This document shows positions 1,547-17,601 of a stretch of DNA of 64,000 nt, in pieces. Position 1 is the stretch's first letter. Every line of letters starts with the position of its first letter. Position numbers and translations under genes: made by a program. Origin of the DNA: Betaproteobacteria bacterium. Its GTDB lineage: Bacteria > Pseudomonadota > Gammaproteobacteria > Burkholderiales > SG8-39. The notes beneath the pieces are model-generated. The model saw only the letters and a program-made list of their open reading frames with translations. It made no database searches and was not told the DNA's origin. The stretch is from contig CANIIA010000002.1 in NCBI GenBank assembly GCA_947467435.1, positions 20,882 through 84,881 of the forward strand, read 5' to 3'.

Positions 1547-2240
1547 CCTCGTTCACCGTGACAGCGTTCGGCGCCACCCACGCTTCGAACAAATAACCAA
1601 ATCCGCGCACTGTTCGAATGCGCAACCCTGCAGGCTCGAGTTTGCTGCGTAAACGCGAGACATACACTTCAATTGCATTCACCGATAAGGCTTCGTCCCA
1701 AGCGGCCATTGATTGAATGATGTGTTCCTTGCTCACCACTTGGTCCACACGCGCCAGCAAAATTTCTAATACTGCCCATTCACGCGCCACCAACTCGAGC
1801 GGCGTACCATTTAAAAAAGCACGGCGCGCCAACACATCGAGCACTAATGGGCCATGGACGCGCTGCGGCCCTGCTTGTGATTGGCTACGACGCAGTAAAG
1901 CGCGGGCACGGGCGGCAAGTTCTGGTATTGCAAAGGGCTTCACCATGTAATCGTCTGCGCCCAAATCTAAGCCACGCACCCGATCATTCACTGCATCGCG
2001 TGCGGTCAACATCATCACAGGCATGGTGCGCTGTTCAGCACGCAAGCGGCGCAGCACTTCAAACCCATCGATTCCAGGTAAGCCAATATCGAGAATGAGT
2101 AAATCGAAGTGCTCTTGCCGTACCGCTAACGCCGCGTGTTCACCATCGCGCATCACATCAACGGCATGGCCATCCGCCTGCAAAATTCGCGACAAGCCCA
2201 AGGCCAACGAATCATCATCTTCAGCGATCAAAATACGCAT
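1524..2240 (-). CDS. OmpR/PhoB-family response regulator (RR1), cognate of the adjacent kinase
   Basis: Receiver motifs ILIAEDDD, LLILDIGLPGIDG and DDYMVKPF. Winged-helix C-terminus LRIRTVRGFGYLF. Translationally coupled to the kinase gene. Confidence 0.95.
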   Translation of the reverse strand: MRILIAEDDDSLALGLSRILQADGHAVDVMRDGEHAALAVRQEHFDLLILDIGLPGIDGFEVLRRLRAEQRTMPVMMLTARDAVNDRVRGLDLGADDYMVKPFAIPELAARARALLRRSQSQAGPQRVHGPLVLDVLARRAFLNGTPLELVAREWAVLEILLARVDQVVSKEHIIQSMAAWDEALSVNAIEVYVSRLRSKLEPAGLRIRTVRGFGYLFEAWVAPNAVTVNEDGSNGAD

Positions 2241-2283
2241 GTGGGTCAGGGTGAGCTCAGGTTGTTCACCTGCGGACGTCTAA

Positions 2284-2330
2284 TTTGTACAGATTTGACG
2301 AACTTTACCGTGATTTGTGGTGCTTTGATC
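2284..2330. promoter_or_regulatory. Five TTTG/TTTA hexamers phased at exactly 10 bp in the divergent RR1 / ACP promoter region
   Basis: TTTGTA at 2284, TTTGAC at 2294, TTTACC at 2304, TTTGTG at 2314, TTTGAT at 2324. Direct repeats with about 10-bp periodicity are the usual geometry of OmpR-family binding sites. They could also produce intrinsic curvature. Confidence 0.4.
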
Positions 2331-2427
2331 CCGAAATGACCTATAACACACGCCAACTTTGCAGGCTTTAAACCAATCTCTCGGTGGTTTTCTGTAAAGT
2401 CAGGACTCAACCAACTGCGCGATTTCG

Positions 2428-2733
2428 ATGCTGTCTCAATTCGATTTCCGCACATCACTCCAGCTACCGATGACCGCACTCAACGAAGACCTGATCTTGC
2501 CACGCGTTCAATCCATGTTGCGTGAGCGTTTTGCCCTCAGCGAGGCGCAAGTCGAGGCAACGCACGCGCTCACCGAATTGGGCGTCGACTCACTTGCGGT
2601 GATTGAGTTTATGTTCGATCTCGAGACTGAGTTTGATATTTCTTTGTCTCAAGAACGCGCGGATATTCACACCATCGGTGACATCGCCGCCCTAGTGCGC
2701 GCGACACTGGATAAAACTACCACGCAAAAATGA
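2428..2733 (+). CDS. Free-standing acyl carrier protein
   Basis: Phosphopantetheine attachment motif LGVDSLAVIEF and an acidic helix-rich sequence. ATGA overlap with the next gene. The start is uncertain (alternative ATG at 2470 gives 87 aa) and there is no clear SD at either. Confidence 0.85.
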   Translation: MLSQFDFRTSLQLPMTALNEDLILPRVQSMLRERFALSEAQVEATHALTELGVDSLAVIEFMFDLETEFDISLSQERADIHTIGDIAALVRATLDKTTTQK

Positions 2734-3974
2734 GGCGTGTTGCCCTCACCGGCGCGGGTGTGATCTCGCCGGTTGGTACCGGCAAAAGTAATTTTTTTCA
2801 GCAAATCAGCGCCGGGATATCTGGTATTCGGCGACTGCAACATCCGGACGCCCAGCGCCTCGGCTTGCAGCTGGCTGGGCAAATCCAAGACTTTGATCCG
2901 AGCCAACACTTTTCTAAAGAGCGGCTCTCAACATTGGATCGCTTTAGTCAGTTTGCCCTGGTTGCTGCACACGAAGCTTGGCAACAAGCTGCCTATCCGT
3001 CGCGCTTTGATCACTCGCGCGGCGGGGTCTTTGTCGGCACCGGCATGGGTGGTGCGAGCACACTCGAAGCGGGCTATGACGCCTTGTTTCGGCAACAGCA
3101 AAACCGCGTGCGTCCAATGTCAGTCATTGCCACCATGCCTAACGCCGCTGCGGCCAACATTGGCATTGAATTTTCATTGCGCGGTCCGTGTTACACCTAC
3201 GCGGTTGCATGCGCTTCAAGCAGCGTGGCGATTGGTGAAGCTGCCCGCGCCATTGCCTACGGTGACCTGGATGTTGCGCTGGCTGGTGGTGCTGAAGCCA
3301 TGCTCTGCCTCGGTGTACTTAAAGGCTGGGAAGCGCTCATGACCCTCGCCATCGAAGACAAGCAAGCGCCCGAACAATCTTGCAAACCGTTTGCAGCGAA
3401 CCGCTGCGGATTTGTACTCGGAGAAGGGGCCGGCATGCTGGTGCTCGAAGACCTCGAACTTGCACAATCTCGCGGCGCGACGATTCTTGCTGAATTGGTC
3501 GGCTACGGCGTATCGAACGATGCGGTACATCTAAGCCGCCCAGAACCGGCTGGACAAGCTGCCGCAATGCGCGCTGCACTCAAGCAAAGTCAACTGCGCG
3601 GTATTCATCTTGAAGACATTGGCTATATCAACGCGCATGGCACAGCCACCAAAGCAGGTGATGCCAGCGAAGTCGCCGCGATCTGCGACGTGTTTGGCGC
3701 GCATCGCACCGCACTTGCCATTAGCTCGACCAAAGCAGTCCACGGACACTTGATGGGCGCTGCAGGCGCGATCGAATTCATTGCCACTGTGTTGGCGCTA
3801 CAAGCGCAGACGCTTCCACCCACGGCACACTTAACCGAACGCGATCCAGCGTTTGATTTAGATTTCGTTCCTCTGCATGCGCGCCCAGCACCTCAACTGC
3901 GCGCCGTGATGTCGAACTCGTTTGCCTTTGGCGGCGCCAACGCCGTCTTGGTTGCCGCACATCCGGACGCTTGA
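2730..3974 (+). CDS. Beta-ketoacyl-ACP synthase, KAS I/II (FabF/NodE-like)
   Basis: 414 aa. N-terminus RRVALTGAGVISPVG. Full Cys-His-His triad context: YAVACASSSVA, INAHGTATKAGD, AVHGHLMGAAG. C-terminus NSFAFGGANAVLV. Confidence 0.93.
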   Translation: MRRVALTGAGVISPVGTGKSNFFQQISAGISGIRRLQHPDAQRLGLQLAGQIQDFDPSQHFSKERLSTLDRFSQFALVAAHEAWQQAAYPSRFDHSRGGVFVGTGMGGASTLEAGYDALFRQQQNRVRPMSVIATMPNAAAANIGIEFSLRGPCYTYAVACASSSVAIGEAARAIAYGDLDVALAGGAEAMLCLGVLKGWEALMTLAIEDKQAPEQSCKPFAANRCGFVLGEGAGMLVLEDLELAQSRGATILAELVGYGVSNDAVHLSRPEPAGQAAAMRAALKQSQLRGIHLEDIGYINAHGTATKAGDASEVAAICDVFGAHRTALAISSTKAVHGHLMGAAGAIEFIATVLALQAQTLPPTAHLTERDPAFDLDFVPLHARPAPQLRAVMSNSFAFGGANAVLVAAHPDA

Positions 3975-3992
3975 CTCACCACACGCCAATTC

Positions 3993-5117
3993 ATGCACAC
4001 ATCTTCAGCACCGCGCATCACCTTACTCGTCACCGGGAGCACCGGATTTCTTGGCAGCGCAATTGTTGCCGAGCTCCTGACTGCGCATCGTGACATCGCT
4101 TTGTTATTTCTGATCCGGGCAGAAAACCCAGAAGCGGGGCGATTGCGTCTAACCCAAAGCGTACGGGGCATGCTTGCCGATCCAGCGTTACTTTCTCATC
4201 TCACGCCAGACATGATTTTGTGCGGAGATCTGCAACACTTTGCTGAGTTACAAAACGATCCACGCGTACAACGCATTACGCATATTTTGCATGCTGCAGC
4301 CTTAGCCTCGTTTGCTTGGAAACCCGAGATTTGGCAAGTCAACGTCGAACAGACCAGTCAGTTCGCACGCGCCGTGGCACAACTGCCCGCCATGCAACGG
4401 TTTTTGCATGTTGGTACCGCAATGATTTCTGGCGACACCACCAATCAGCACGTGCATGAAACTCAGTTCCCTGCCAAGGTGCGTCACTTTGTACCCTACA
4501 CCAAAAGTAAGGCAGAAATCGAACCATTGTTGCCCACCCTGCTCGGTCGCATCCCCGTAGTGATTGCACGACCTTCGATCGTGGTAGGGCATTCGCGTAC
4601 GGGTTGCAGTGCATCGCCGAGTATTTTTTGGGTGTTTCGGATGATTCACGCAGCCAAGCGCGTACCTTTTAAAACCACCAATAAAGTCGACATCATTCCA
4701 GTTGATTTTTGTGCGCGTGCATTAATTACTCTAACGCTGTCAAGCGAATTAGCGCATGCGTGTTATCACATCTCAGCGGGTGACACAGAGAGTTGTACCT
4801 TTGATGAAATTGATGCCGCTTATACACGCGCTGAAGGCCTCGGGCGCGATGCACCGTTGCAACAAATCGACGTCGCCGATCTAAGCGCACTCGAGCCACA
4901 ATTTGAATCGTGGTTCGGCCCATGTGATACCCAACGCATGTCGACGGTAGCCAAGCTGTATCGCATCTTTGCTGGACTCAACGTCACGTTTAACAATCAG
5001 CGCATGCGTGAAGCCGGCATCGCGCCTCCACCTCGCTTTGTCGACTATTTACCGGTGTGCCAACAAACCGGCGAAGATCAACCTATCGCCGAGCAAATGC
5101 TTTACGATTTTCGTTAG
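3993..5117 (+). CDS. Extended-SDR thioester reductase / fatty-acyl reductase-type protein (NAD_binding_4 'male sterility' type)
   Basis: 374 aa. Rossmann motif LLVTGSTGFLGS near the N-terminus and catalytic YTKSK (YxxxK). Size and layout match terminal reductase domains. Co-directional with ACP and KS. Confidence 0.75.
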   Translation: MHTSSAPRITLLVTGSTGFLGSAIVAELLTAHRDIALLFLIRAENPEAGRLRLTQSVRGMLADPALLSHLTPDMILCGDLQHFAELQNDPRVQRITHILHAAALASFAWKPEIWQVNVEQTSQFARAVAQLPAMQRFLHVGTAMISGDTTNQHVHETQFPAKVRHFVPYTKSKAEIEPLLPTLLGRIPVVIARPSIVVGHSRTGCSASPSIFWVFRMIHAAKRVPFKTTNKVDIIPVDFCARALITLTLSSELAHACYHISAGDTESCTFDEIDAAYTRAEGLGRDAPLQQIDVADLSALEPQFESWFGPCDTQRMSTVAKLYRIFAGLNVTFNNQRMREAGIAPPPRFVDYLPVCQQTGEDQPIAEQMLYDFR

Positions 5118-5878
5118 CGCACGACAGACGTCGGCGCTGCGGCCGCAGGGCGATACTCTTCCAACATATAACCAAAGCCACGCACCGTTCGAATACGAAT
5201 ACCTGCGGGCTCTAATTTAGCGCGTAAGCGCGAGATGTACACCTCGATCGCGTTAGCCGATAAATCTTCGGTCCAATGCGTCAGCGACTCGATAAAGGTG
5301 TCTTTGCTCACCACCTTTTCAACATGCTCCAGCAAAATTTGCAGCACCGCCCATTCACGTGCCGCCAATTCAAGCGGCTCATCATTTAAGAACGTCCGTC
5401 GCGCGACAGTATCAAACTCAAGCGGGCCGTGCACCGCGCGCGTAGAGTGATCCACCAGACCGCGCCGAATCAACGCACGTACACGTGCAGACAATTCTGG
5501 AATCGCAAACGGCTTCACCATGTAATCATCAGCGCCTAAATCTAAACCATGCACGCGATCTCCAATGGCATCGCGGGCGGTCAAGATCAATACCGGAATA
5601 CGCTGACCGATGGCGCGTAGTCGACGCAACACTTCAAACCCGTCAATGCCAGGTAAACCGACATCCAACACCATCAAATCAAACGCGGTGGCTTGCAAAC
5701 GCTCTAACGCGAGCTCGCCATTGGCGACACATGCAACTTCATGACCATCTAGCGTCAACGCACGTGTGAGTCCTGCAGTGAGGCTACTATCGTCCTCGAC
5801 AATCAATAGGCGAGCGCTGGAGGCCTCCTGCACTGCGGTTTTTGGTTGTACTTCTGCGGTTATTGGGTCTGACATCAA
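5114..5878 (-). CDS. OmpR/PhoB-family response regulator (RR2), last gene of the czcCBA-like operon, no adjacent kinase
   Basis: Receiver motifs LLIVEDD, LMVLDVGLPGIDG and DDYMVKPF. Winged helix IRIRTVRGFGYML. Starts 18 nt after the czcA-like stop. Long sequence blocks are identical to RR1. Confidence 0.93.
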   Translation of the reverse strand: MMSDPITAEVQPKTAVQEASSARLLIVEDDSSLTAGLTRALTLDGHEVACVANGELALERLQATAFDLMVLDVGLPGIDGFEVLRRLRAIGQRIPVLILTARDAIGDRVHGLDLGADDYMVKPFAIPELSARVRALIRRGLVDHSTRAVHGPLEFDTVARRTFLNDEPLELAAREWAVLQILLEHVEKVVSKDTFIESLTHWTEDLSANAIEVYISRLRAKLEPAGIRIRTVRGFGYMLEEYRPAAAAPTSVVR

Positions 5879-5896: not shown

Positions 5897-8800
5897 TCAC
5901 GCTACCGGCGGCTCATTCGGTGAACGTAAACTGATACGACCAAATAATAGTGGTAGTAACAGCAACGTAAACACCGTCGCGCTAACGATACCGCCCACAA
6001 TCACCACCGCAAATGGACGCTGCGTTTCAGAGCCAATGCCACTCGATAAGGCCGCCGGCAGCAAGCCCAATCCGGCCATCAATGCCGTCATTAAAATCGG
6101 TCGCAAACGCATCACAGCGCCTTCAACAATCGCCTCTTCCATGCGTTTGCCATGACGAATGAGCTCGATCATCTGCTCAACCATGATCACACCGTTTTGC
6201 ACCGAAATACCCGCCACGGCAATAAAGCCAACAGCGGCCGACACAGACAAATGCAACCCCGCCAATCCCAAGCCGGCAATGCCACCAATTAAAGTAAACG
6301 GCACCATCATCAAAACAACCAGCGCGCTTCTCACTGAACGAAACGCCCAAAACAACAACGAAAAAATAGCCAGCAACGATAACGGCACAACCACTTTTAA
6401 GCGCGCCATCGCACGCTGCTGATTTTCAAACTGCCCACCCCAAGTGACGGTGTAACCCGGCGGTAAGACTACTTTTTCTGCCACCAGCTTTTGCGCTTCA
6501 GCAACAAAGCTACCCTGATCACGACCGGATAAATTTGCTTTTACTGCCACAATACGACCACCGCCCTCACGCGATACGCGTGTGGCCCCTTGCCGGACCT
6601 CGACCTTCGCCACGTCACCCAACGACACAGTGGGCAACAAATTCATACCAGGCGTGGCATTGGCAGGCACAGGCAAAGGAATTTGTAAGTGTGCAATATC
6701 ATCCACCGCATCGCGATATTGGCTTAACAAACGCACCGTCACATCAAAGCGCCGACCACCGTCGTAAAACGTATTCACTGATGCGCCCGCTAGCGCGGTT
6801 TGAATGACGTTATTGACGTCACTCACGTTTAAACCCAGTCGTGCGATTTTATTTCGGTCGACGGTAATGGTGAGTTCACTTTGTCCACCGATACGAAACA
6901 CGGCTACATCCACAGCACCGCGAATGGTATTAAGCACCTCTACAATTTGATCGCCCTTTTCCTGCAAAATTTCAAGGTCAGGGCCAAATACTTTGACCAC
7001 AATTTCCCCGCGCGCACCAGACAACGCCTCTTCGACGTTGTCTTGAATGACTTGCGAAAAATTCGTCGGTACGCCCGGAATACGATGAATGCGCGCGGAC
7101 ATATCGCGTACCAAATCATCTTTGGTGGCAAAACGCCATTCTCCACGCGGCTTGAGCTCAGCCAGTATTTCTAAGTTGTTCGGGCCCTTTGGATCGGTGC
7201 CATCATCGGGTCGGCCCACTTGAGTGACCACCATATTCACTTCAGGGTAGCTGCGCAAAATAGTCCGCACTTCGCGCTCGATATCTTTGGTTTTTTGCAG
7301 GCTACTGGGCGGTGGCATGGTAATGGTCAGCCAGATATTGCCTTCATCGAGTTTGGGTAAAAATTCACTGCCTAACAAAGGCACCACCGCAACAGAGGCG
7401 GCAAGCAAACTCAAGGACACAAAAATCAACTGACGTGCATGCTGATCTAGGGCCAACAAAAAGGCGCGATAGCGTTCTTGTAACGCATGCATCCACGCCG
7501 AGTGTTTTTCAACCATATCACCTGATTTCAAGGCGTAAGTTAGAAGGGTCGGGACAAGAATCAAGGTCAGGATAATTGCGCCAAGCAAAGCAAATGACAG
7601 CGTAAAGGTGACCGGCGTAAAAATTTTTCCTTCTACCCGCTGAAAGGTAAAGATCGGCAGAAAGGCAATAATGATGATGGCCTTTGAAAACAAGATGGGG
7701 TGACACAGCGACACCGCAGTGTGCTTTAGTTCATGTAACCGCCAACCGTACGTGCCATGGGCTGGATTTTTATCGGCTTGACTAAGCGCTAAGCGCACCA
7801 TCAGCGCTTCCACCAGTACCACCGCACTATCGACAATGATGCCGAAGTCAACGGCACCTAACGAAATCAAATTGGCCGATACGCCGCGCGCATCCATCAA
7901 AATAAACGCAAACAAGAGCGACAACGGAATCACTGTGGCGACAATCAGCGCTGCTTTCCAGTTACGCAAAAACAGCATCAACACGCCGATCACCAACAAG
8001 GCGCCCACCAGTAGATTTTCAATCACGGTGTGTACCGTGTGCTCAATCAAATCGGTCCGCTGATAAATCGGCCGGATCTTCACGCCAGGTGGTAATTTGG
8101 TGTTCACCAAATCGACTTTGGCACGCAGATCCTTCACCACCTTGGCGGCGTTTTGCCCCTTGATCATTTGCACAATACCTTCGACCACTTCATCGCGATC
8201 GTTGGCTGCAACAATGCCCTGACGCGGTCGCATGCCAATGCGCACTTGTGCAAGATCAGACACGTAAACCGGGCGCCCACCTGGTGAGGCCACCACCGTG
8301 CGGCCAATGTCGTCGAGATTTTCAAATAAACCTACGCCACGAATCACCAACGCCTCATCACCGCGACGCATTAACCCACCGCCAACGTTCGCGCTGTTAT
8401 TTGCCAAGGCTTGCGAGACTTGATCCAGCGTCACACCGTAGCGCTTCAGCGCAAACGGATCGACCCGCGCTTGGTACTCCTTGACGGCACCACCAAAGCT
8501 AATCACATCCGCAATACCAGGCACGATGCGTAGTGCGGGCTTGATGGTCCAATCTTGAATCGCGCGAATTTCGTATAAAGGCATTTCTGCCGGTGCATCC
8601 AGCACGTAACGATAGATTTCACCCACCGCCGTTGAGAGTGGCGCCAGCTGCGGCTGCGCACCCGTCGGTAGCGTGACGTTGCCCAGTTTTTCTAAGACTT
8701 GCTGACGTGCGAAGTAATCGTCGGTGCCTTCTGCAAAGGTCAGCGTGACCACCGACAATCCAGTAATCGACACTGAACGTAAATTAGTCTGACGCGGTAC

Positions 8801-9025
8801 ACCGCTCATCTCGCGTTCGATGGGTAGCGTGACACTGCGCTCGACTTCTTCGGGTGCCAGCCCCGGCATTTGCGTAACGATTTGCACCTGTACATCCTGC
8901 ACATCCGGAAACGCCTCGATGGGCAAATTTTCAAGTGCTCGAAGACCAAACACCGCGAGTGCAAACGTCAACACCAGCACAAAGACGCGCTGATGCATCG
9001 CAAACGAAATCAGCCGATCAAACAT
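5897..9025 (-). CDS. czcA: Heavy-metal-efflux RND pump, CzcA/CusA family
   Basis: 1042 aa. Starts MFDRLISFAMHQRVFVLVL. 12-TM RND layout with two large periplasmic loops. TM4 segment is VDFGIIVDSAVVLVEA. Confidence 0.93.
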   Translation of the reverse strand: MFDRLISFAMHQRVFVLVLTFALAVFGLRALENLPIEAFPDVQDVQVQIVTQMPGLAPEEVERSVTLPIEREMSGVPRQTNLRSVSITGLSVVTLTFAEGTDDYFARQQVLEKLGNVTLPTGAQPQLAPLSTAVGEIYRYVLDAPAEMPLYEIRAIQDWTIKPALRIVPGIADVISFGGAVKEYQARVDPFALKRYGVTLDQVSQALANNSANVGGGLMRRGDEALVIRGVGLFENLDDIGRTVVASPGGRPVYVSDLAQVRIGMRPRQGIVAANDRDEVVEGIVQMIKGQNAAKVVKDLRAKVDLVNTKLPPGVKIRPIYQRTDLIEHTVHTVIENLLVGALLVIGVLMLFLRNWKAALIVATVIPLSLLFAFILMDARGVSANLISLGAVDFGIIVDSAVVLVEALMVRLALSQADKNPAHGTYGWRLHELKHTAVSLCHPILFSKAIIIIAFLPIFTFQRVEGKIFTPVTFTLSFALLGAIILTLILVPTLLTYALKSGDMVEKHSAWMHALQERYRAFLLALDQHARQLIFVSLSLLAASVAVVPLLGSEFLPKLDEGNIWLTITMPPPSSLQKTKDIEREVRTILRSYPEVNMVVTQVGRPDDGTDPKGPNNLEILAELKPRGEWRFATKDDLVRDMSARIHRIPGVPTNFSQVIQDNVEEALSGARGEIVVKVFGPDLEILQEKGDQIVEVLNTIRGAVDVAVFRIGGQSELTITVDRNKIARLGLNVSDVNNVIQTALAGASVNTFYDGGRRFDVTVRLLSQYRDAVDDIAHLQIPLPVPANATPGMNLLPTVSLGDVAKVEVRQGATRVSREGGGRIVAVKANLSGRDQGSFVAEAQKLVAEKVVLPPGYTVTWGGQFENQQRAMARLKVVVPLSLLAIFSLLFWAFRSVRSALVVLMMVPFTLIGGIAGLGLAGLHLSVSAAVGFIAVAGISVQNGVIMVEQMIELIRHGKRMEEAIVEGAVMRLRPILMTALMAGLGLLPAALSSGIGSETQRPFAVVIVGGIVSATVFTLLLLPLLFGRISLRSPNEPPVA

Positions 9026-9031
9026 AGCGCG

Positions 9032-10195
9032 CTAGCTACCCGAGGCCAACTCTGAAGCAAGTAACAATGCACCGCGCACCACCACGCGCTCGCCCTCTTT
9101 GATACCCTCAGAAACGTAACTAAATTCGCGGTCTTGCACTTCGAGCGTCACTTTACGTTTTTCAAATACACCAGCTTCGCGCTCGATAAAGACAAACGAA
9201 TACAGACCATCACTCACCAACGCGGCGTTAGGAATCCGCCCCGCTGAGCGCCGCGCTTCGGCCAGCAGGCTCACGCGCGCGTACATTTCTGGGCGTAACC
9301 GCAGCAGTTTATTGTCCACTTTGCAACGCACCTGTAAACGGCGCGTCGTCGGATCAACAGCGGGCGCAATGCGCTCAACTGTTCCCGGAAATTTTTCATC
9401 TTTCCAAGCATCCACCTCAACAGACACCTCTTGTCCTACCCGCACTTTGCCGATGTGCGCTTCAGGCAAATCAACCAACACTTGTAAACGCCGTAGATCC
9501 GTAACGATGAATAATGGATCGGCTAAATCTGGGCGCACTTCCATTCCCGGATTGGCTTTTCGATCCACCACCACGCCCGCGATCGGTGTGGTTAAGGTCA
9601 TGCGCTGACCAAGTAAATTTCCACCCCGTGGATTGAGATTGGCTAAACGTAACGCAGCACGTTCTGTCTCGGCGTGCGCTTGCGCTTGATCGGCTTCGAC
9701 CGATTCCAGTTCGCGACGCGACAACACACCACCTTCGGCTAATTCACGCGCACGGCGCAGCGCCAACGCTTTGCGGTTTTCATCTGCGCGCGCCTTGAGT
9801 AAATCTGCTTGAGCCGCGCCCAAATCAGGGGCATCGATCACGGCGAGCGCAGCGCCCGCTTTTACTTCATCACCCAACAAGGTGCGCAGCTCAACCACAC
9901 GACCGGCAATCGGCGCACTGATTCGCGCAGTGGCATTTTCATCAAACACAATCCGCGCATTGAGTGGTTCGGCCAGCGGCACAGGAAACACAACCAAGGG
10001 CTCCACTGAAAGCAACGATAACTGCGACGCACCGTTCGGAAAGCGCAGCACCCCGGGCTCTTTAGCATGCACTTGCGGCGGCTCAGGAGCCACCGCCAGT
10101 GCGGGGCCACGGTTCTTATACCAAACAACCGTCATGGCAATTCCTGCCCCGATCAGCAACAGCAACACAAGCCAGTGCAGACGTTTATTTTTCAT
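9032..10195 (-). CDS. czcB: RND efflux periplasmic adaptor (CzcB/CusB-like membrane fusion protein)
   Basis: ORF 9032..10261. Preferred start is the ATG at 10195 (MKNKRLHWLVLLLLIGAG signal-anchor) with GGAAG just upstream. Coiled-coil hairpin and beta-barrel regions typical of the HlyD/MFP family. Confidence 0.88.
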   Translation of the reverse strand: MKNKRLHWLVLLLLIGAGIAMTVVWYKNRGPALAVAPEPPQVHAKEPGVLRFPNGASQLSLLSVEPLVVFPVPLAEPLNARIVFDENATARISAPIAGRVVELRTLLGDEVKAGAALAVIDAPDLGAAQADLLKARADENRKALALRRARELAEGGVLSRRELESVEADQAQAHAETERAALRLANLNPRGGNLLGQRMTLTTPIAGVVVDRKANPGMEVRPDLADPLFIVTDLRRLQVLVDLPEAHIGKVRVGQEVSVEVDAWKDEKFPGTVERIAPAVDPTTRRLQVRCKVDNKLLRLRPEMYARVSLLAEARRSAGRIPNAALVSDGLYSFVFIEREAGVFEKRKVTLEVQDREFSYVSEGIKEGERVVVRGALLLASELASGS

Positions 10196-10215
10196 GCGCT
10201 TCCAATCACAACAAT

Positions 10216-11502
10216 TCAGGGCGCGACACTTGTGCTTGCCGCAGTGATACTGGCACGCCAAGCATGTAAGGCACGTGCATGCTCTGCACGTGCGGCCAAT
10301 GCTTCGAGTTGTACAGCGCGTAAGGTGCGGCGTGCATCCAACACTTCAAGCACCGACGTGGCGCCGCGCGCAAACGCAAATTCAGCGGCTTCGGCGGTAC
10401 GCTGTGCGGCAGCCAGCAAACTGCCTTCATAGCGCTCGACACGTTCACCTGCGGCGCGCAAATCGCTATCGGCGCGCGCGATTTCGGTGGCTGCAGCAGC
10501 ACGCACGCGGGCGAGTTGATCCAGCGCCGTGTTTCGATCGACCTCAGCACGCTGAATATCGCCAGAAAAATCGTTACCAAAAAATAAAGGCACGGATACG
10601 CCAAAGCCCACGCTATTGGCCGGGACGTTGCCGGCATAGCGTTCAAACTGCGCACCCACAGAGACATCACGCGTGCGCTGACTTCGCGCCAATTCACGTA
10701 AGCGCTCTGCTGCATCAAACCGCGACTGTGCAGCACGCACATCGGCGCGGGCTTCTACTGTCGTTTCAATCGAAGTTGCGCGTACGGGCGCATTGGCTGG
10801 CCATGATTCTGCGGCACGTAGTTGGCTTGCTTGGGCTTCTTCACCAATTAAAAATGCCAACGCAAACTGCGCGCGCACGCGCTCAGCTTCGGCGCCACGC
10901 AAATCGGCCGAAGCGCGCTCTGCATCCACCTGTACACGCGCCACGTCGGCCGGAGAAATATCCCCGGCCTTTAAGCGCGTTTGTGCGACCGCGAGTGTCT
11001 TAGCAAATAATTCTGCGTTTTCACGCATCAGCGTGTTTTTTTCTTGCGCCTGTTGCAAATCAACGTACGCCGAACGCGCCGCCAACAATTGCTGTCGCAA
11101 CACATCTGACACATCGCCACGTGCAGCCATTTCGAGTCGCTGAGCGGCATCGACACGTAACGCACGCTTATTGCCACGCTCAATGGTTTGATCTACGCGG
11201 TAGATGTTATCGATGCGCTTGTTATTCCAACTGCCCGAACCCACGCCTGGGTTGCTATTGATTCCCGTGCTACTGAACGACACCACCGGGTTGGGCAACA
11301 CATCCGCTTGACGAATTTGTGCTTCGGCGCCTTCCAGTGCGCGACGTGCGGCTTGCACATCGCGGTTTGCGCGCAGCACCAACGTTTCAATTTGCGCGAG
11401 CGTGAGTTCGCGCACGGTCGATGATTGAGCGTGAACTGAAAATGCGCTAACAAATAAATATGTTGCGGCTAATAAAGACAACCGCTGGGTTAAACGTCGC
11501 AT
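10216..11502 (-). CDS. czcC: TolC-family outer-membrane efflux protein (CzcC-like)
   Basis: ORF 10216..11556. Preferred start is at 11502 (MRRLTQRLSLLAATYLFVSAFSVHAQS signal peptide). Two OEP-type repeats rich in A/R/E/L. Confidence 0.88.
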   Translation of the reverse strand: MRRLTQRLSLLAATYLFVSAFSVHAQSSTVRELTLAQIETLVLRANRDVQAARRALEGAEAQIRQADVLPNPVVSFSSTGINSNPGVGSGSWNNKRIDNIYRVDQTIERGNKRALRVDAAQRLEMAARGDVSDVLRQQLLAARSAYVDLQQAQEKNTLMRENAELFAKTLAVAQTRLKAGDISPADVARVQVDAERASADLRGAEAERVRAQFALAFLIGEEAQASQLRAAESWPANAPVRATSIETTVEARADVRAAQSRFDAAERLRELARSQRTRDVSVGAQFERYAGNVPANSVGFGVSVPLFFGNDFSGDIQRAEVDRNTALDQLARVRAAAATEIARADSDLRAAGERVERYEGSLLAAAQRTAEAAEFAFARGATSVLEVLDARRTLRAVQLEALAARAEHARALHAWRASITAASTSVAP

Positions 11503-11731
11503 AACAAGAATCCGCTTGCCTCTGTAGACAACGTATTGCCGGGCGCGGATTGTCACACCTTTGCGCTGAATGGGGAACGTACCTTACGCGCCAGGCTTGT
11601 CCACAAGCTTGCGAGAAGCTGTCTAAATTCTGACGTTGCATCGCAACATGATCGAGCGTGTAGCGATCTGTTTGGTTGCGAGGTGCTTGGGGCTGGATTA
11701 GGATCCAACGCACTGTTCCTAGGAGGGTCCG

Positions 11732-12211
11732 ATGACCATCAACGTCTCTATGCAAGTCAATGGCAAAGCCGCCAGCGTGAATGTCGAAGAACGCACGTTA
11801 TTGGTGACCGTGCTGCGCGAAGAACTTCGTCTTACCGGCACGCACGTCGGCTGCGATACCGCCCAGTGCGGTGCATGCACCGTGCATATGAATGGCAAGG
11901 CCGTAAAGTCTTGCTCGATGCTCGCCATGCAAGCCGAGGGTGCGCAAATTTTGACCATCGAAGGTGTTGCCCATGCAGATGGCAGCCTGCATCCAATGCA
12001 GGCGGCGTTTAAAGAGCATCACGGTCTGCAATGCGGTTTTTGTACCCCCGGCATGGTGATGAATGCCATCGATTTAGTGCAAGGTCGACCTAACATCACC
12101 GAAGAAGAAATTCGTCACGGACTCGAAGGTAACTTGTGTCGCTGTACCGGCTATCACAACATTGTGAAGTCGATTGCAGCTGGTGCAAAAGCAATGGCAA
12201 GCGCGAAGTAA
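11732..12211 (+). CDS. coxS: [2Fe-2S] small subunit of a molybdenum hydroxylase (CoxS-like)
   Basis: 159 aa. Motifs [38 protein letters not shown] about 6 nt upstream. Confidence 0.93.
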
Positions 12212-12255
12212 CGCTCAAAAAAACACAACCAAAATAAACGGTTCAGGAGACGACA

Positions 12256-14622
12256 ATGAATGCACCTTTGATCGGCGCACGGGTTGCGCGTAAAGAAGAC
12301 TACCGTTTCCTCACCGGTGCTGGGCAATACACCGATGATGTGAATCTGCCACATCAAACGTACGCCGCCTTTGTTCGTTCACCGCACGCACACGCAAAGT
12401 TAAAGCGCATTCAGACCAGCAAAGCCAAACAACATCCCGGTGTGCTTGCGATTTTTACTGGTGAAGACATGCAGGTGGGCAGTTTGCCTTGCGGTTGGCT
12501 GATTACCGATGTGCATGGCCAACCCATGAAAGAACCGCCGCATCCGCCCTTAGCGCAAGGCAAAGTTCGGCACGTGGGTGACCAGGTCGCGGTGGTAATT
12601 GCAGAAACGCTTTCAGCTGCGCGTGATGCCGCCGAGTTGGTCGAGGTGGAGTACGAGGTCCTTCCAGCAGTGATTGATATGGCCAAGGCCACCGCAGCGG
12701 GCGCCCCGGCCATTCATGACGCTGCGCCAGATAACACCTGCTACGTGTGGGCCTTAGGAGATCAAAGCGCGTGCGACGAAGCGTTTAAAAAAGCGGCGCA
12801 TGTCACACGTCTCAATTTAGTGAATAACCGTCTCATTCCCAATGCCATCGAGCCACGCGCAGTCAACGGCAGTTATTCGCGCGGCGATGATAGCTATACG
12901 CTATACGTCTCGAGTCAAAACCCTCACGTCGAACGTCTTTTGATGACTGCGTTTGTGCTGGGGTTACCCGAGCACAAGGTACGTGTCGTTGCACCTGATG
13001 TGGGTGGTGGGTTTGGCTCAAAAATTTATTTGTACGCTGAAGATGTGGTGGTGACTTGGGCCTCCAAACAAATCGGCGGACGCCCCGTGAAGTGGACTGG
13101 CGATCGCAGCGAATCTTTTTTAAGCGACGCGCATGGTCGCGATCACATCACGCAGGCCGAGTTAGCGCTGGATAAAGACGGAAAATTTCTGGCACTGCGC
13201 GTACACACGACAGCCAATATGGGCGCTTACCTATCCACCTTTGCGTCGTGTATCCCAACGATTTTGTATGCCACGCTGCTGGCAGGCCAATACGCCACGC
13301 CGGCGATTTACTGTGAAGTCAAAGCGGTCTTCACGAACACCGCGCCTGTCGATGCTTATCGTGGCGCAGGCCGTCCTGAGGCGGCGTACGTGGTAGAGCG
13401 CATCGTTGAAACCGCCGCGCGTGAACTGAAGATCGATCCGGCAGAATTACGGCGACGTAATTTCGTGCGTAATTTTCCATATCAAACCCCCGTGGCGCTG
13501 ACCTATGACACGGGTGATTTTCAAGCCACACTCGATGGCGCCATTCAACTGAGCGATGTCGCTGGATTTGCTCAGCGTAGAAAAGCTTCTGAAGCGGCCG
13601 GTAAATTACGCGGCCTCGGCTACGCCGCGTACATCGAAGCTTGCGGCTTGGCCCCTTCGAACATTGCTGGCGCCCTCGGTGCGCGCGCAGGGTTATTTGA
13701 AGCAGGCGAGGTACGTGTACATCCCACCGGATCAGTGACGGTGTTTACTGGATCACACTCACACGGCCAAGGGCACGAAACCACGTTCGCGCAAGTCGTG
13801 GCCGATCGTTTAGGCATGCCGATCGAAAACGTCGATATCGTGCACGGCGATACCTCGAAGGTGGTGTTTGGCATGGGCACTTATGGCTCGCGCTCGCTGT
13901 CGGTGGGTGGTACCGCGATCGTGAAAGCCTTAGACAAAATTATCGCGAAGGGCAAAAAAATAGCAGCGCACTTAATGGAAGCCGCAGAAGCCGATATCGA
14001 TTACGACAGCGGCGTATTCAAAGTGAGTGGCACGGATAAACAAAAAACCTTTGGCGAAGTCGCCTTTGCGGCGTACGTGCCACACAACTATCCGCTCGAT
14101 AAACTCGAACCCGGCCTCAATGAAAATGCGTTTTACGATCCCACCAACTTCACCTACCCCTCTGGTACATACATTTGTGAAGTCGAAGTCGATCCAGACA
14201 CGGGCACCGTGCGCGTCGATCGATTTACGGCTGTTGATGACTTTGGAAAAATCGTCAATCCAATGATTGTCGAGGGACAAGTGCATGGCGGCGTGACCCA
14301 AGGCATCGGTCAAGCCTTACTCGAAGGTTGTCATTACGATACTGAAACCGGTCAATTGATCACTGGCTCGTTTATGGATTACGCCATGCCGCGTGCCGAA
14401 GATGTACCGAGTTATGCGCTAGCAACGCGCGAAACACCGTGCACGCATAATCCGTTAGGCGTGAAAGGTTGCGGTGAGGCTGGCGCGATCGGCGCACCTG
14501 CGGCATTAATGAATGCCATCACCGATGCGCTGAGTATTTACGGTATTCAAGATTTACCGATGCCCGCTAGCCCACAAACTGTGTGGAAAGCGATCCGCGC
14601 CGCGCAACAAAAAGCGGCCTAA
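12256..14622 (+). CDS. coxL: Molybdopterin-binding large subunit, form-II CoxL-like
   Basis: 788 aa. N-terminus [17 protein letters not shown], then VGGGFGSK. Active-site loop [12 protein letters not shown] (AYRGAGR signature of form-II/putative CODH, not the form-I AYRCSFR). Confidence 0.9.
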
Positions 14623-14688
14623 ACGGATACGCATTCAGCACACGCTTTTTTTATTCCACACGAAACAACGCAACACGGAGAAATCAAT

Positions 14689-15489
14689 ATGTACGCATTT
14701 ACTTACCACCGCCCCGCCAGTGCGGCCGATGCCGCAGCGCTCGCACTCAAACACACCGACGGAAAAATTCTTGCTGGAGGACAAAGTTTGGTGCAAGCCA
14801 TGAAACTGCGCCTCGCCTCCCCTAGCGACATTATTGATTTGGGCACCGCCAAAGACCTCGTCGGCATTTCACAAAAAGGCAATCAGATCACGATCGGCGC
14901 GATGACGCGTCACGCCGCAGTTGAGCAAAGTGCTGAAGTCAAACAACTGATTCCTGCATTAGCCGATCTCGCTGGGGGTATTGGCGATCGTCAAGTGCGT
15001 CATATGGGCACACTCGGTGGAGCGCTAGCAAACAACGACCCGGCCGCGTGTTATCCCGCCGCAGTACTTGGCTTAGGCGCAACCATCCAGACCAACAAGC
15101 GCACGATTGCCGCCGATGATTTCTTTAAAGGCTTGTACGAAACCGCACTTGAGTCTAGCGAGATCATCACCGCTGTCACCTTTCCCGCTGCCAAGCGCGC
15201 GGCCTACATCAAGTTTAAAAACCCCGCTTCACGGTTTGCGTTAGTTGGCGTGTTTGTTGCGCAAATGGACCAAGGGGTGCGCTTAGCCGTCACCGGTGCG
15301 GCCTCTTGTGTGTTTCGTGTGCCCGAGATGGAAAAAGCGCTGGGGGCTGCGTTTACGCCAGAGTCAATCGCCAAGATTCATGTGAGCGCCGACGACCTCA
15401 ACTCGGATCTACATGCCGCTGCAGATTACCGCGCCCATCTGATTACCGTGATGGCCAAGCGCGCAGTGAGCAAAGCGCTGGGTCAGTAA
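14689..15489 (+). CDS. coxM: FAD-binding medium subunit (CoxM-like)
   Basis: 266 aa. ILAGGQSLVQAMKLR FAD-binding motif. Completes the S-L-M gene order. Confidence 0.9.
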   Translation: MYAFTYHRPASAADAAALALKHTDGKILAGGQSLVQAMKLRLASPSDIIDLGTAKDLVGISQKGNQITIGAMTRHAAVEQSAEVKQLIPALADLAGGIGDRQVRHMGTLGGALANNDPAACYPAAVLGLGATIQTNKRTIAADDFFKGLYETALESSEIITAVTFPAAKRAAYIKFKNPASRFALVGVFVAQMDQGVRLAVTGAASCVFRVPEMEKALGAAFTPESIAKIHVSADDLNSDLHAAADYRAHLITVMAKRAVSKALGQ

Positions 15490-15502
15490 TTTTTCTGGCT
15501 TC

Positions 15503-15539
15503 AAAAAAAAACGCGCGTCAGGTTTGGCGCGCGTTTTTT
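15503..15539. terminator. Bidirectional intrinsic terminator between convergent coxM and acyl-CoA ligase genes
   Basis: A8-ACGCGCG-tcaggtttgg-CGCGCGT-T6. The GC stem is flanked by an A-tract on one side and a T-tract on the other. Confidence 0.7.
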
Positions 15540-15600
15540 ATTGCGTCAGCAACAACAAAGCAACAACTCCATCTGACGAGTTCAATCACAACAGCCTCAT

Positions 15601-17124
15601 CTACGGGGCAACAAAATTCGCTTTCAGTTGATACTTGAGCACCTTGCCAGAACTATTACGCGGCAAGGCATCCACAAACATCACGTACTTGGGTTTTTTG
15701 TAGCCAGCAATTCGGTTGCGACAGTGCTCGATCAAGGCCTCGGCTACGAGGTGCTCACCAGGGCGCAACTCAACCCACGCGGCAACCGCTTCACCGTACA
15801 TGGCATCTGGCACACCAGCGACTGCGGCATCTTGCACCGCTGGATGTTCAAGTAAGGCGGCCTCAACTTCTTTTGAATAGATGTTGTAGCCGCCGGATAA
15901 CACCATGTCTTTTTTGCGGTCGACAATGTACAAATAGCCCTCAGCATCCCGACGCGCTAAATCCCCAGTGGCAAACCAACCGTCGCGCAGTGCTTCAGCG
16001 GTTTCTTGTGGTCGATTAAAGTACCCACGCAGCGTCACAAAGCGCCCGGGTTCACCGCTACGCACTTGCAACTCGCCAATGGCGTCCTCTTCCGTGACCA
16101 GTTCGCCAGCTGCACTCATCAAACGCACTTCAATGCCGGCAATCGGTCGACCGATCGAGGTGGGACGTGTGAGTTGCTCTTCTGGCGGTAAGTTGGTCAA
16201 CGCGCCACACTCGGTCATCGCAAAGTACGAGTGAATGCCAATTTGCGGCAACGCTTGCATGATGCGCGCCTTCACTTCACGCGGAAACGCCTCGCCCGTG
16301 GCCACCAATAAACGCACTGTGGCAAACGCTTGTGGTTGCGCTTCGATCGCGGGTAGTAACAAGCGACCCACCGTCGGCACCATTCCCAGCACGGTAATAC
16401 CTTCAGTGGCACATAAGCGCGCCGCTTCGTTGGCATCAAAGCGCGGCAAGATCACCAATGGCGAACCAATACACAACATATTAATCACGCGACCAAACGC
16501 CGTCCGGTGCGTGAGCGGTGTGGTGATTAAGTGTTTGTCGTTGGCATTGATGCCCCATTCCAAGGCGTTGATGTAAGCGTTGGGTACAAAATAATTCGAT
16601 TGGGTCAGAATCGCGCCCTTGGGTCGACCGGTGGTGCCTGAGGTGTAGGCGATCATGCAGTCGTCTTGATGGACCGGTAAATCAAATCGCTGCGGGGCAT
16701 GCGCTTGCCATAACGCATCAAAATCTAATTCTTGCCCTTGTGTTTCACCTGCCACCAAGATCACCGGCACATCGTGCGTTGCGCGCTCTAACAACGACCG
16801 CGTCTCTGGATGGATAAACATCGCACGCGGTGCGCAATCGGCCAAAATAAAACTGGCTTCCGAAGGTGTGAGCCGCGTGCCAATCGGTACGGCGATCGCG
16901 CCCACCTTGATGATGGCAAGAAACGCCAACACATATTCCGCGCAGTTGGGTAACAGCACCGCGACGCGATCACCCACACCAACCCCACGTGCGTGTAGTG
17001 CTGCAGCGAGCTGATCACTGCGCGTATCGAGCGCGACAAACGATAAGCGCAACGCACCACAAATTAAGGCTTCACGCTCTGGCGTTGCGCGTGCGTGCGC
17101 CGCCAGAAATGCTGGCAGTTTCAT
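15601..17124 (-). CDS. AMP-dependent acyl-CoA synthetase/ligase
   Basis: 507 aa. Motifs YTSGTTGRPKGA, GWFATGDLARRDAEGYLYIVDRKKD, PRNSSGKVLK. Confidence 0.93.
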   Translation of the reverse strand: MKLPAFLAAHARATPEREALICGALRLSFVALDTRSDQLAAALHARGVGVGDRVAVLLPNCAEYVLAFLAIIKVGAIAVPIGTRLTPSEASFILADCAPRAMFIHPETRSLLERATHDVPVILVAGETQGQELDFDALWQAHAPQRFDLPVHQDDCMIAYTSGTTGRPKGAILTQSNYFVPNAYINALEWGINANDKHLITTPLTHRTAFGRVINMLCIGSPLVILPRFDANEAARLCATEGITVLGMVPTVGRLLLPAIEAQPQAFATVRLLVATGEAFPREVKARIMQALPQIGIHSYFAMTECGALTNLPPEEQLTRPTSIGRPIAGIEVRLMSAAGELVTEEDAIGELQVRSGEPGRFVTLRGYFNRPQETAEALRDGWFATGDLARRDAEGYLYIVDRKKDMVLSGGYNIYSKEVEAALLEHPAVQDAAVAGVPDAMYGEAVAAWVELRPGEHLVAEALIEHCRNRIAGYKKPKYVMFVDALPRNSSGKVLKYQLKANFVAP

Positions 17125-17163
17125 CGGTTATACCAAGACAGTCAGTGAATGAGTGGGAGTGTC

Positions 17164-17601
17164 TTACGCTGGCTCAAAACCAGGCAGATCGTATTCTTCG
17201 GAAAGTTTTTCAAAGCACACTTTCACCGGCATACCGATCTTCACGTCTTCGTTTTTCACGTGATGCAAGTTCACCAACATACGCACGCCCTCTTCTAGCT
17301 CGACCAAGGCGCACAAATACGGCACGCGATCTTCATGACCTGGCCAAGCGCTGTAGGTGTTGGTAAAGCTATACACCGTGCCGCGCCCAGACACTTCACG
17401 CCACTCTAAATTGCGTCGACCATTCACCATGCTCACTGGACGCGGAAAAAACTGCGCGCGACCACTGTCTTTGCAATATTGAACGACGAGTTTTCCTTGA
17501 TGGGCCGCATCCCAAAACGGACGTGTGTCCATGTACACCCCTGGTTTTGGTAGGGGACGTGGAATTTTTTTTGGTTCAGGTTTTTTTGCAACGTCGCTCA
17601 T
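17164..17601 (-). CDS. DUF35 OB-fold protein (acyl-CoA-associated), Zn-ribbon apparently degenerate
   Basis: 145 aa. Core FWDAAHQGKLVVQYCKDSGRAQFFPRPVS...GTVYSFT typical of DUF35. Only one Cys where a four-Cys ribbon is usual. ATGA-type overlap with the upstream thiolase-fold gene. Confidence 0.8.
   Translation of the reverse strand: MSDVAKKPEPKKIPRPLPKPGVYMDTRPFWDAAHQGKLVVQYCKDSGRAQFFPRPVSMVNGRRNLEWREVSGRGTVYSFTNTYSAWPGHEDRVPYLCALVELEEGVRMLVNLHHVKNEDVKIGMPVKVCFEKLSEEYDLPGFEPA

Follow-up and report, generated by a model that had tools for sequence, protein, structure and literature searches.

An operon of acyl carrier protein, ketosynthase and CprA/HlyF-family reductase genes in a betaproteobacterial genome

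The window analysed here is a stretch of 64,000 nucleotides from contig CANIIA010000002.1 of a Betaproteobacteria bacterium (assembly GCA_947467435.1). Close to its start lie three genes in one direction—for a free-standing acyl carrier protein (ACP), a ketosynthase (KS) and an extended short-chain dehydrogenase/reductase (SDR)—which are referred to as the triad in the following. All three open reading frames (ORFs) are found on the forward strand exactly where an earlier, sequence-only reading of this DNA (the initial annotation) had placed them:

2428–2733, + strand: ACP gene; ORF of 101 aa, with the likely true start at ATG 2470, giving 87 aa
2730–3974, + strand: KS gene; FabF-like elongating beta-ketoacyl synthase of 414 aa
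3993–5117, + strand: reductase gene; extended SDR of the CprA/HlyF family, 374 aa

The genes are tightly packed. Read at base level, the ACP/KS junction is an ATGA overlap (2730–2733), the KS ends with TGA at 3972–3974, and after a gap of 18 nt the reductase starts with ATG at 3993. Its stop codon, TAG at 5115–5117, shares 4 nt with the stop of a convergent response-regulator gene. Between the regulator genes that flank the triad there is no acyltransferase, ketoreductase (KR), dehydratase (DH), enoyl reductase, adenylating enzyme, phosphopantetheinyl transferase or exporter—nor any other gene of the fatty-acid synthase (FAS) or polyketide synthase (PKS) type—and the operon is thus as minimal as the initial annotation had described it. 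A second KS, ACP or reductase is absent from the whole window, and the search of the window found no fab genes near the triad. An Rfam scan of 2000–5400 gave no match, and the 10 terminator-like sites inside genes, against 6.0 ± 2.5 expected, are not a convincing excess. GC content ranges from 0.52 to 0.59 across the region, and the base composition bears no sign of recent acquisition.

The ACP translation carries the motif ...ELGVDSLAVIEFMF..., with the phosphopantetheine-attachment serine within GVDSL, and matches the Pfam family PP-binding (PF00550) at 9e-10. It scores below every NCBIfam AcpP equivalog cutoff and is hence not the housekeeping ACP. The GVDSL/DSL motif is conserved among the triad ACPs (alignment A4). 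Since the homologues are 82–87 aa long, the second ATG (2470) is probably the true start rather than 2428. A module-specific ACP hidden Markov model matches KS-linked CprA loci only.

For the KS, the motifs VACASS, NAHGTATKAGD and VHGHLMGAAG were confirmed, and both Pfam domains—ketoacyl-synt (2e-47) and Ketoacyl-synt_C (9e-34)—match over their full length. The catalytic triad Cys161-His303-His340 and Lys335 are all invariant in alignment A2; with Cys-His-His and the active-site lysine intact, the protein is predicted to be an elongating (decarboxylating) enzyme of the thiolase superfamily. It resembles FabF without being a member of the curated family: 444.9 bits against the TIGR03150 fabF model fall short of the cutoff of 493.75, and the broader subfamily model PRK07314 is matched at 432 bits, above its cutoff of 387. 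The best PDB matches are FabF structures (up to 332 bits), with the actinorhodin KS at 222 bits. A large set of betaproteobacterial relatives matches at 450–590 bits. In the trees, all of which were built by neighbor joining (NJ), the window KS branches apart from KSs of the acpP-fabF type, and the KSs of ACP-KS-reductase loci form one clade with a bootstrap of 200/200. A single origin of all reductase-linked KSs is not claimed, as they are grouped in the NJ tree with a bootstrap of 41/200. A KS-anchored scan of metagenome contigs, which is no quantitative census, gave among the matches listed mostly ordinary FabF-level relatives of 38–50% identity.

The reductase is, by sequence, a clear member of the CprA/HlyF family, and the description of the operon as an orphan in the initial annotation was wrong in its case. 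It is 44–46% identical to Pseudomonas proteins named 'cationic peptide resistance protein CprA' in a large protein collection and 41.6% identical to HlyF of E. coli virulence plasmids over residues 11–374 (97% of its length). The published marks of this family are a size of 360–385 residues, at least 40% identity, the motifs TG.TGF.G and YT.SK, a conserved C-terminus with D-F/Y-K and a domain of the fatty-acyl reductase (FAR) type FAR-N without FAR_C (PMC11752146). The window reductase has the size, the identity, both motifs and a FAR-N type domain without FAR_C, and it ends in DFR, not in D-F/Y-K. TGSTGFLG occupies residues 14–21 and YTKSK residues 169–173, and a 64-sequence reductase alignment shows G15, T17, G18, G21, Y169, T170, S172 and K173 to be invariant. 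The alignment extends over all of the C-terminal 120 residues; D372 and F373 are invariant, and the last residue is R instead of the K, as in most of this reductase's clade; K to R is a conservative change.

Many homologues bear the name 'nucleoside-diphosphate-sugar epimerase' in their sources, several of them in JGI annotations. Nevertheless, the sequence and the predicted fold of the reductase are those of carrier-protein acyl-thioester reductases and not of sugar epimerases. The profile comparison proposed in the initial annotation favors NAD_binding_4 (5.8e-31, 108 bits, residues 13–243) over Epimerase (1.2e-14, 55 bits), and the protein does not group with epimerases. The Pfam scan found no domain beyond the NAD_binding_4 region, FAR_C being absent. 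The GalE and RmlB models reach 27 and 24 bits, against cutoffs above 260. A PDB sequence search at E≤1e-3 returned no sugar epimerase, and its only matches are the terminal reductase domains (R domains) of MxaA (2.7e-13), M. tuberculosis NRP and AusA. The AlphaFold2 model (pLDDT 92.9, pTM 0.93) gives a similar picture. Among PDB structures, Foldseek places R domains of PKS, nonribosomal peptide synthetases (NRPS) and carboxylic-acid reductases (CAR), several of them solved with a carrier domain, together with the rice fatty-acyl reductase DPW, on the first 22 ranks. Nucleotide-sugar epimerases appear from rank 23 onward, with a TMq of 0.62 versus 0.73 for the R domains, and the conserved C-terminal part of about 120 residues aligns with the C-terminal subdomains of R domains. 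The gene identities of the initial annotation—a free-standing ACP, a complete Cys-His-His condensing enzyme and an SDR of the thioester-reductase or FAR type—are hence borne out by Pfam, NCBIfam, PDB and Foldseek.

R domains (MxaA 4u7w, M. tuberculosis NRP 4dqv, CAR 5msv and the PKS thioester reductase 8v1x) are thus the best sequence and structure matches of the reductase. They share with it an extended-SDR core of the Thr-Tyr-Lys type and a C-terminal subdomain; their substrates are thioesters bound to phosphopantetheine. However, R domains are fused to a carrier protein within megasynthases, whereas the window reductase is free-standing, about 20% identical to them and below the threshold of the curated R-domain model TIGR01746. 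Judged by the rule of that model, it is a relative of R domains and not a member. Fatty acyl-CoA/ACP reductases—plant DPW (7eoz; Foldseek rank 13, TMq 0.75) and the Marinobacter-type FAR—share the N-terminal NAD_binding_4 domain, with fatty aldehyde or alcohol as the expected product class, but differ by the FAR_C ('Sterile') C-terminal domain that the reductase does not have. One CprA-family homologue of 452 aa, P0078, carries an N-terminal extension of 80 residues that resembles the end of an adenylation domain (GEICIGTSGVARGY). As this is an adenylation-domain tail and not an ACP, P0078 was rejected as a carrier-protein fusion ('Rosetta stone'); the extension could stem from an error in gene calling or be left over from a neighboring acyl-AMP ligase or NRPS gene.

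The conservation of the triad was assessed at 80 species-level genome loci, out of 457 genome matches, each of which was searched for the KS and the ACP of the window. Metagenome scaffold L001 is identical to the window over the shared 21 kb, L003—a metagenome-assembled genome (MAG) of an uncultured bacterium—carries a 96–98% identical copy, and the closest named relatives of the window are Betaproteobacteria/Burkholderiales MAGs. The order ACP-KS-reductase is present in all five closest loci (L003–L007, 49–96% identity) and also in the metagenomic loci L083, L085/L086, L087, L088 and L177, the three genes usually overlapping or closely spaced across independent contigs. Within the Betaproteobacteria the cassette occurs in at least eight unrelated flanking contexts, and the flanks differ in every case: tRNA methyltransferase and racemases; RND pump and OprB; SMR and MFS transporters; DMSO-reductase-like genes and EamA; DAHP synthase and PhaC. 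Hence, the cassette is autonomous, and its recurrence is far beyond chance. The survey of gene neighborhoods that the initial annotation had called for shows the triad recurring without ever lying within a larger known FAS/PKS locus (L003–L007 and the metagenomic contexts). No acyltransferase is conserved next to it, and no chain-length factor, cyclase, KR or DH is present in any context.

In the NJ tree, the reductases of the ACP-KS-reductase loci fall into a single clade whose sister is a clade from Negativicutes. L055 and L011, which lie elsewhere in the reductase tree, show a second gene order, reductase-ACP-KS. An 83-aa ORF upstream of the KS in L011 was considered as the ACP and discarded, the real ACP being in another frame. 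One MAG (Kiruna2_bin-4101) holds closely related CprA-family paralogues in both arrangements—reductase-ACP-KS (L055:1579–4266) and solitary (L076:8001–9095)—so that private-ACP and general-pool versions may coexist there. Two Pelosinus MAGs of the Negativicutes (L008:4232–7460 and L009:5866–9098) carry CprA-family reductases of 46–47% identity and thus place the family in diderm Firmicutes; a published survey of the family names members from Gamma- and Betaproteobacteria only, with a non-functional Porphyromonas protein serving as the outgroup.

CprA of P. aeruginosa and HlyF of E. coli ColV-type plasmids are cytoplasmic SDRs (PMC11752146; bioRxiv 10.1101/2025.03.27.645671; 10.64898/2026.09.18.752599), and a FAR-like activity on lipids has already been suspected for their family (PMC11752146). 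The window reductase agrees with them in its 41–46% identity over the full length, size, motifs, C-terminal end and FAR-N-type domain without FAR_C. The clear difference lies in the gene context. The described members are solitary—in ompT-hlyF-mig14 of E. coli and alone in Pseudomonas, Yersinia, Serratia and Ralstonia—whereas in the window clade the reductase gene closes an operon that also encodes a dedicated ACP and a FabF-like KS. The window reductase, like most of its clade, also differs in its DFR end. No KS or ACP was found within 8 kb of the CprA-family gene in any Pseudomonas, Yersinia, Serratia, Pantoea, Enterobacter or Verrucomicrobia locus inspected, nor within 8 kb of hlyF in E. 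coli (ompT-hlyF-mig14) or R. solanacearum. The literature searches, beyond whose reach most subscription journals lay, returned nothing that links HlyF or CprA to an ACP or a KS.

Relatives of the ACP-KS pair also stand beside other partners. In Candidatus Ferrigenium straubiae (L093:4289–9245), a gene for an HlyC-family acyltransferase is followed by an ACP gene and a KS gene with gaps of 23 and 7 nt, the FabF-like KS being 56% identical to that of the window. This set lies beside type I secretion genes (ABC, MFP) and the gene of a giant RTX/cadherin-repeat protein (also 10887–17245), and the arrangement suggests that the RTX protein is acylated from a private acyl-ACP pool. HlyC-type enzymes take acyl-ACP with ordinary fatty acyl chains as the acyl donor. 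Literature searches with the same restricted reach gave nothing relevant on HlyC together with ACP and KS. The CprA homologue of this organism is encoded at a separate locus without a KS (L072). Alpha/beta-hydrolase genes precede ACP and KS in L095:6872–9242, L134:3862–6218 and L103:3879–6218, the KS-anchored metagenome scan having added such examples among the matches listed, and in L120:766–3111 an alpha/beta-hydrolase gene lies directly upstream of the KS with no ACP detected. The alpha/beta-hydrolases upstream of related KSs are 34–72% identical to one another.

Private pairs of this kind are known in principle. In NodF/NodE, which serve the acyl chain of the rhizobial Nod factor, and in AcpXL with its FabF paralogues, which serve the very-long-chain fatty acid of lipid A, a private ACP works with a FabF-like KS. 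These systems divert general fatty-acid chains and extend them, borrowing the housekeeping FabD, FabG, FabZ and FabI, and pass the acyl-ACP on to the acyltransferases NodA and LpxXL. The triad differs in that its conserved partner is a reductase and not an acyltransferase. NodE- or AcpXL-specific models are not among the listed NCBIfam matches of the triad proteins, and nod genes are absent from every triad context. The comparison with NodF/NodE drawn in the initial annotation therefore stands for the layout of an ACP gene followed by a KS gene, and it does not extend to orthology or to a nod cluster. The operon is accordingly not categorically new: its KS and ACP are members of known superfamilies and its reductase belongs to a known family.

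We consider it probable, with moderate confidence, that the triad is a single autonomous operon for the synthesis of a specialized envelope lipid. The functional statements on the triad all draw on sequence, predicted structure and gene context. In the proposed sequence of events, the dedicated ACP would be activated by housekeeping AcpS and malonylated by FabD. The KS would draw on the general fatty-acid pool for an acyl chain and join it to malonyl-ACP by condensation, which would move the chain—two carbons longer—to the private ACP. Processing of the beta-keto group may follow, carried out by housekeeping FabG, FabZ and FabI as in systems of the NodF/NodE type. The relative linked to HlyC speaks for chains that are ordinary and fully processed; with no KR in the cassette, the beta-keto option is also conceivable. 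The CprA-like reductase is expected to free the chain from its carrier in an NAD(P)H-dependent step that yields a fatty aldehyde and possibly, after further reduction, the alcohol. The product might alter the properties of the outer membrane and of vesicles, by analogy with CprA and HlyF. Expression would probably respond to the adjacent PmrA/QseB-like two-component system.

Since the partners of the ACP-KS pair are all expected to be enzymes of acyl-ACP thioesters, the pair can be read as a module that supplies private acyl-ACP, and the reductase as an enzyme that reduces acyl-ACP. We tentatively raise a broader possibility, in which we have less than even confidence: ACP-KS might be a portable module that plugs into CprA/HlyF-type reductases, HlyC-type toxin acyltransferases and alpha/beta-hydrolases alike. 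The operon might then reveal ACP-bound fatty acyl thioesters as the substrate class of the family, and the product of the triad might be a fatty aldehyde or alcohol—defined in chain length or oxygenated at the beta position—that remodels the outer membrane under PmrAB-like control.

Several observations weigh against the picture of a single pathway for an envelope lipid. HlyF and CprA alone give the vesicle phenotype when expressed in E. coli (PMC11752146), and most of the family members inspected have no ACP or KS within 8 kb. As the solitary members act alone, a private ACP-KS pair is not needed for the basic activity of the family. L176:4262–6748 encodes a reductase and a KS with 64 nt between the genes, and its contig of 7.5 kb holds no ACP. 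In L094:7756–9436, ACP and KS are intact and the reductase is a 35-residue N-terminal remnant; the pair may hence have a use of its own. With these two loci and the functional solitary members, the coupling is not obligatory across the family. As to the reductase itself, its 87.4 bits against the TIGR01746 (Thioester-redct) cutoff of 213.35 lie below the curated rule, and Foldseek separates it from sugar epimerases by a modest margin (1e-18 versus 1e-14). No clear Shine-Dalgarno sequence or promoter is seen around the triad genes. On the regulatory side, both regulators and the kinase near the triad, which are described below, score under every equivalog cutoff, and a two-component system adjoins the triad in some contexts only, most being without one.

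Two of these loci deserve a further remark. The reductase of L176 has the same extended C-terminus (DFKGISTRA...) as that of L011. At L094, the remnant is 57% identical to residues 10–44 of the reductase, and small ORFs, EamA and a FemAB-like gene come after it; the KS falls within the triad KS clade, and the locus is, by these sequence traits, a decayed triad.

Alternatively, the genes could be co-regulated without sharing an intermediate: ACP and KS would adjust membrane acyl chains, and the reductase would act on the general acyl-CoA/AcpP pool as in Pseudomonas and E. coli. We regard this as rather unlikely. It would fit with most CprA/HlyF genes being solitary yet functional and with the partial sets, that is, ACP-KS pairs without a reductase in L093, L095 and L094 and a set without ACP in L176. 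However, the ATGA overlap indicates translational coupling, and the linkage is strict across the whole reductase clade in unrelated contexts, with a matching KS clade (200/200). The linkage is also kept in the second gene order, and the other partners of ACP-KS are likewise enzymes that are expected to act on acyl-ACP.

The SDR might also be the missing beta-ketoreductase of the cassette, which would convert 3-oxo- to 3-hydroxyacyl-ACP for acyltransferases encoded elsewhere (for lipid A, ornithine lipid or similar), with no reductive release. The cassette indeed lacks a KR, extended SDRs include ketone reducers, and the reductase has weak matches to 3Beta_HSD (5e-6) and to the 2-alkyl-3-oxoalkanoate reductase OleD (about 1e-5). 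Still, every one of its best matches, in sequence as in fold, is a thioester or acyl reductase, no acyltransferase is conserved beside the triad, and stand-alone family members work without any KS—which makes this explanation improbable.

We give very little credence to a minimal type II polyketide-like system, in which the KS would work iteratively on the private ACP and the reductase would release a poly-beta-keto or polyene aldehyde as a signal or pigment precursor. The layout of free ACP, KS and terminal reductase does resemble the reductive release of PKS, and PKS and NRPS R domains are among the top fold matches. But chain-length factor, cyclase, KR and DH are missing from all contexts, the KS is nearest to FabF, well above the actinorhodin KS in score, and a related ACP-KS pair directly follows an HlyC-type acyltransferase, a type of enzyme that uses ordinary fatty acyl chains. 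Finally, a nucleotide-sugar epimerase or dehydratase that modifies lipopolysaccharide sugars next to ACP-KS by accident is hardly credible, as the names of many homologues, the Epimerase profile match and the epimerase folds from rank 23 stand against an NAD_binding_4 score of twice the size, a PDB sequence search free of epimerases, the low GalE and RmlB scores and a C-terminal part that fits the R-domain subdomains with the better TMq.

If the three genes do form one envelope-lipid operon, this touches on an open question about the CprA/HlyF family. HlyF and CprA have been reported as virulence and antimicrobial-peptide-resistance factors in E. coli, P. aeruginosa, Yersinia, Klebsiella and Ralstonia. 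According to the published description of the family, expression induces outer-membrane vesicles able to block autophagy in the host and adds to resistance against polymyxin or antimicrobial peptides (PMC11752146). In the papers of 2025–2026, the substrate and the 'toxic' lipid are still unidentified (bioRxiv 10.1101/2025.03.27.645671; 10.64898/2026.09.18.752599). By its gene content, the operon points to a carrier-bound fatty acyl chain as the CprA/HlyF substrate. A family member tied to its own ACP and KS allows for a testable hypothesis—an acyl-ACP thioester as the substrate and a fatty aldehyde or alcohol as the product—and offers a cleaner experimental system, as the private ACP makes the intermediate traceable. 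Judging by the sets described above, ACP-KS pairs may furthermore supply acyl groups interchangeably to other enzymes, an RTX-toxin acyltransferase among them. The portable-module reading, if true, would reveal the long-sought substrate class of a virulence and polymyxin-resistance family.

Upstream of the triad, the window encodes a two-component system:

1524–2240, − strand: OmpR-family response regulator (Pfam Response_reg and Trans_reg_C), divergent from the triad
140–1546, − strand: sensor histidine kinase of the PmrB/QseC type (2CSK_N, HAMP, HisKA, HATPase_c), partner of the regulator at 1524–2240
2241–2427, no strand: divergent intergenic region between the regulator and ACP genes; presumed promoter/operator

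The best NCBIfam model of the regulator is PmrA (216 bits, cutoff 330), followed by TctD and QseB; for the kinase, QseC (187 bits), heavy-metal sensor (177 bits) and PmrB (164 bits) are all below their cutoffs. The adjacency to a PmrA-like system is a further likeness to CprA, since cprA is a direct target of PmrAB in P. aeruginosa (PMC11752146). In the unrelated context of L177, a homologous pair of a 2CSK_N kinase (42%) and an OmpR-type regulator (54%) lies convergent to the triad, and in the Pelosinus MAGs (L008, L009) a regulator-kinase pair stands directly upstream of the reductase in the same orientation. It is plausible that the neighboring PmrA/QseB-like system controls triad expression. 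The initial annotation had proposed a regulated lipid or signal product from the position of the operon between two-component genes and a metal-efflux operon; its regulatory half gains from the 2CSK_N/OmpR pair that also accompanies the triad in L177 and from cprA being a PmrAB target, and the link to metal efflux is not established.

A scan of the intergenic region for the sigma-70 consensus gave no promoter-like site. Between 2283 and 2328, ATTTG occurs at 2283, 2293 and 2313 and CTTTG at 2324, with a spacing of about 10–11 bp or multiples thereof. The arrangement ATTTG-N5-ATTTG (2283–2297) is unique in the window, but 0.42 are expected and 36% of shuffles give at least one, so that it is not significant and the repeat was dropped as evidence for a PmrA box. 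The repeats could be a candidate site for the binding of a response regulator.

Downstream, a second PmrA-like response regulator (5114–5878, − strand) is 63% identical to the regulator at 1524–2240 (− strand), and both bracket the triad. Lacking a kinase of its own, it stands at the end of a czcCBA-like operon (5897–11556), and its stop overlaps that of the reductase. The triad appears to be placed between a regulator and what may once have been the kinase operon of that regulator, and L003 shows the same arrangement. Genes for CzcB or RND-type efflux are found near ACP-KS(-reductase) in the window (5897–11556), L085:1–6339, L094:15864–17242 and L095:16340–17242, those of L085 lying directly upstream of ACP-KS-reductase on the same strand. 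Given how common RND pumps are, chance may account for this closeness.

Lastly, a coxSML-type molybdenum hydroxylase cluster (CO-dehydrogenase-like) lies near a CprA-family locus in three betaproteobacterial contexts: in the window (11732–15489, 6.6 kb from the triad), in L094 (1–7477, directly beside ACP-KS) and on the R. solanacearum megaplasmid (L090:1–5569, directly upstream of hlyF). This may reflect ancestral synteny.

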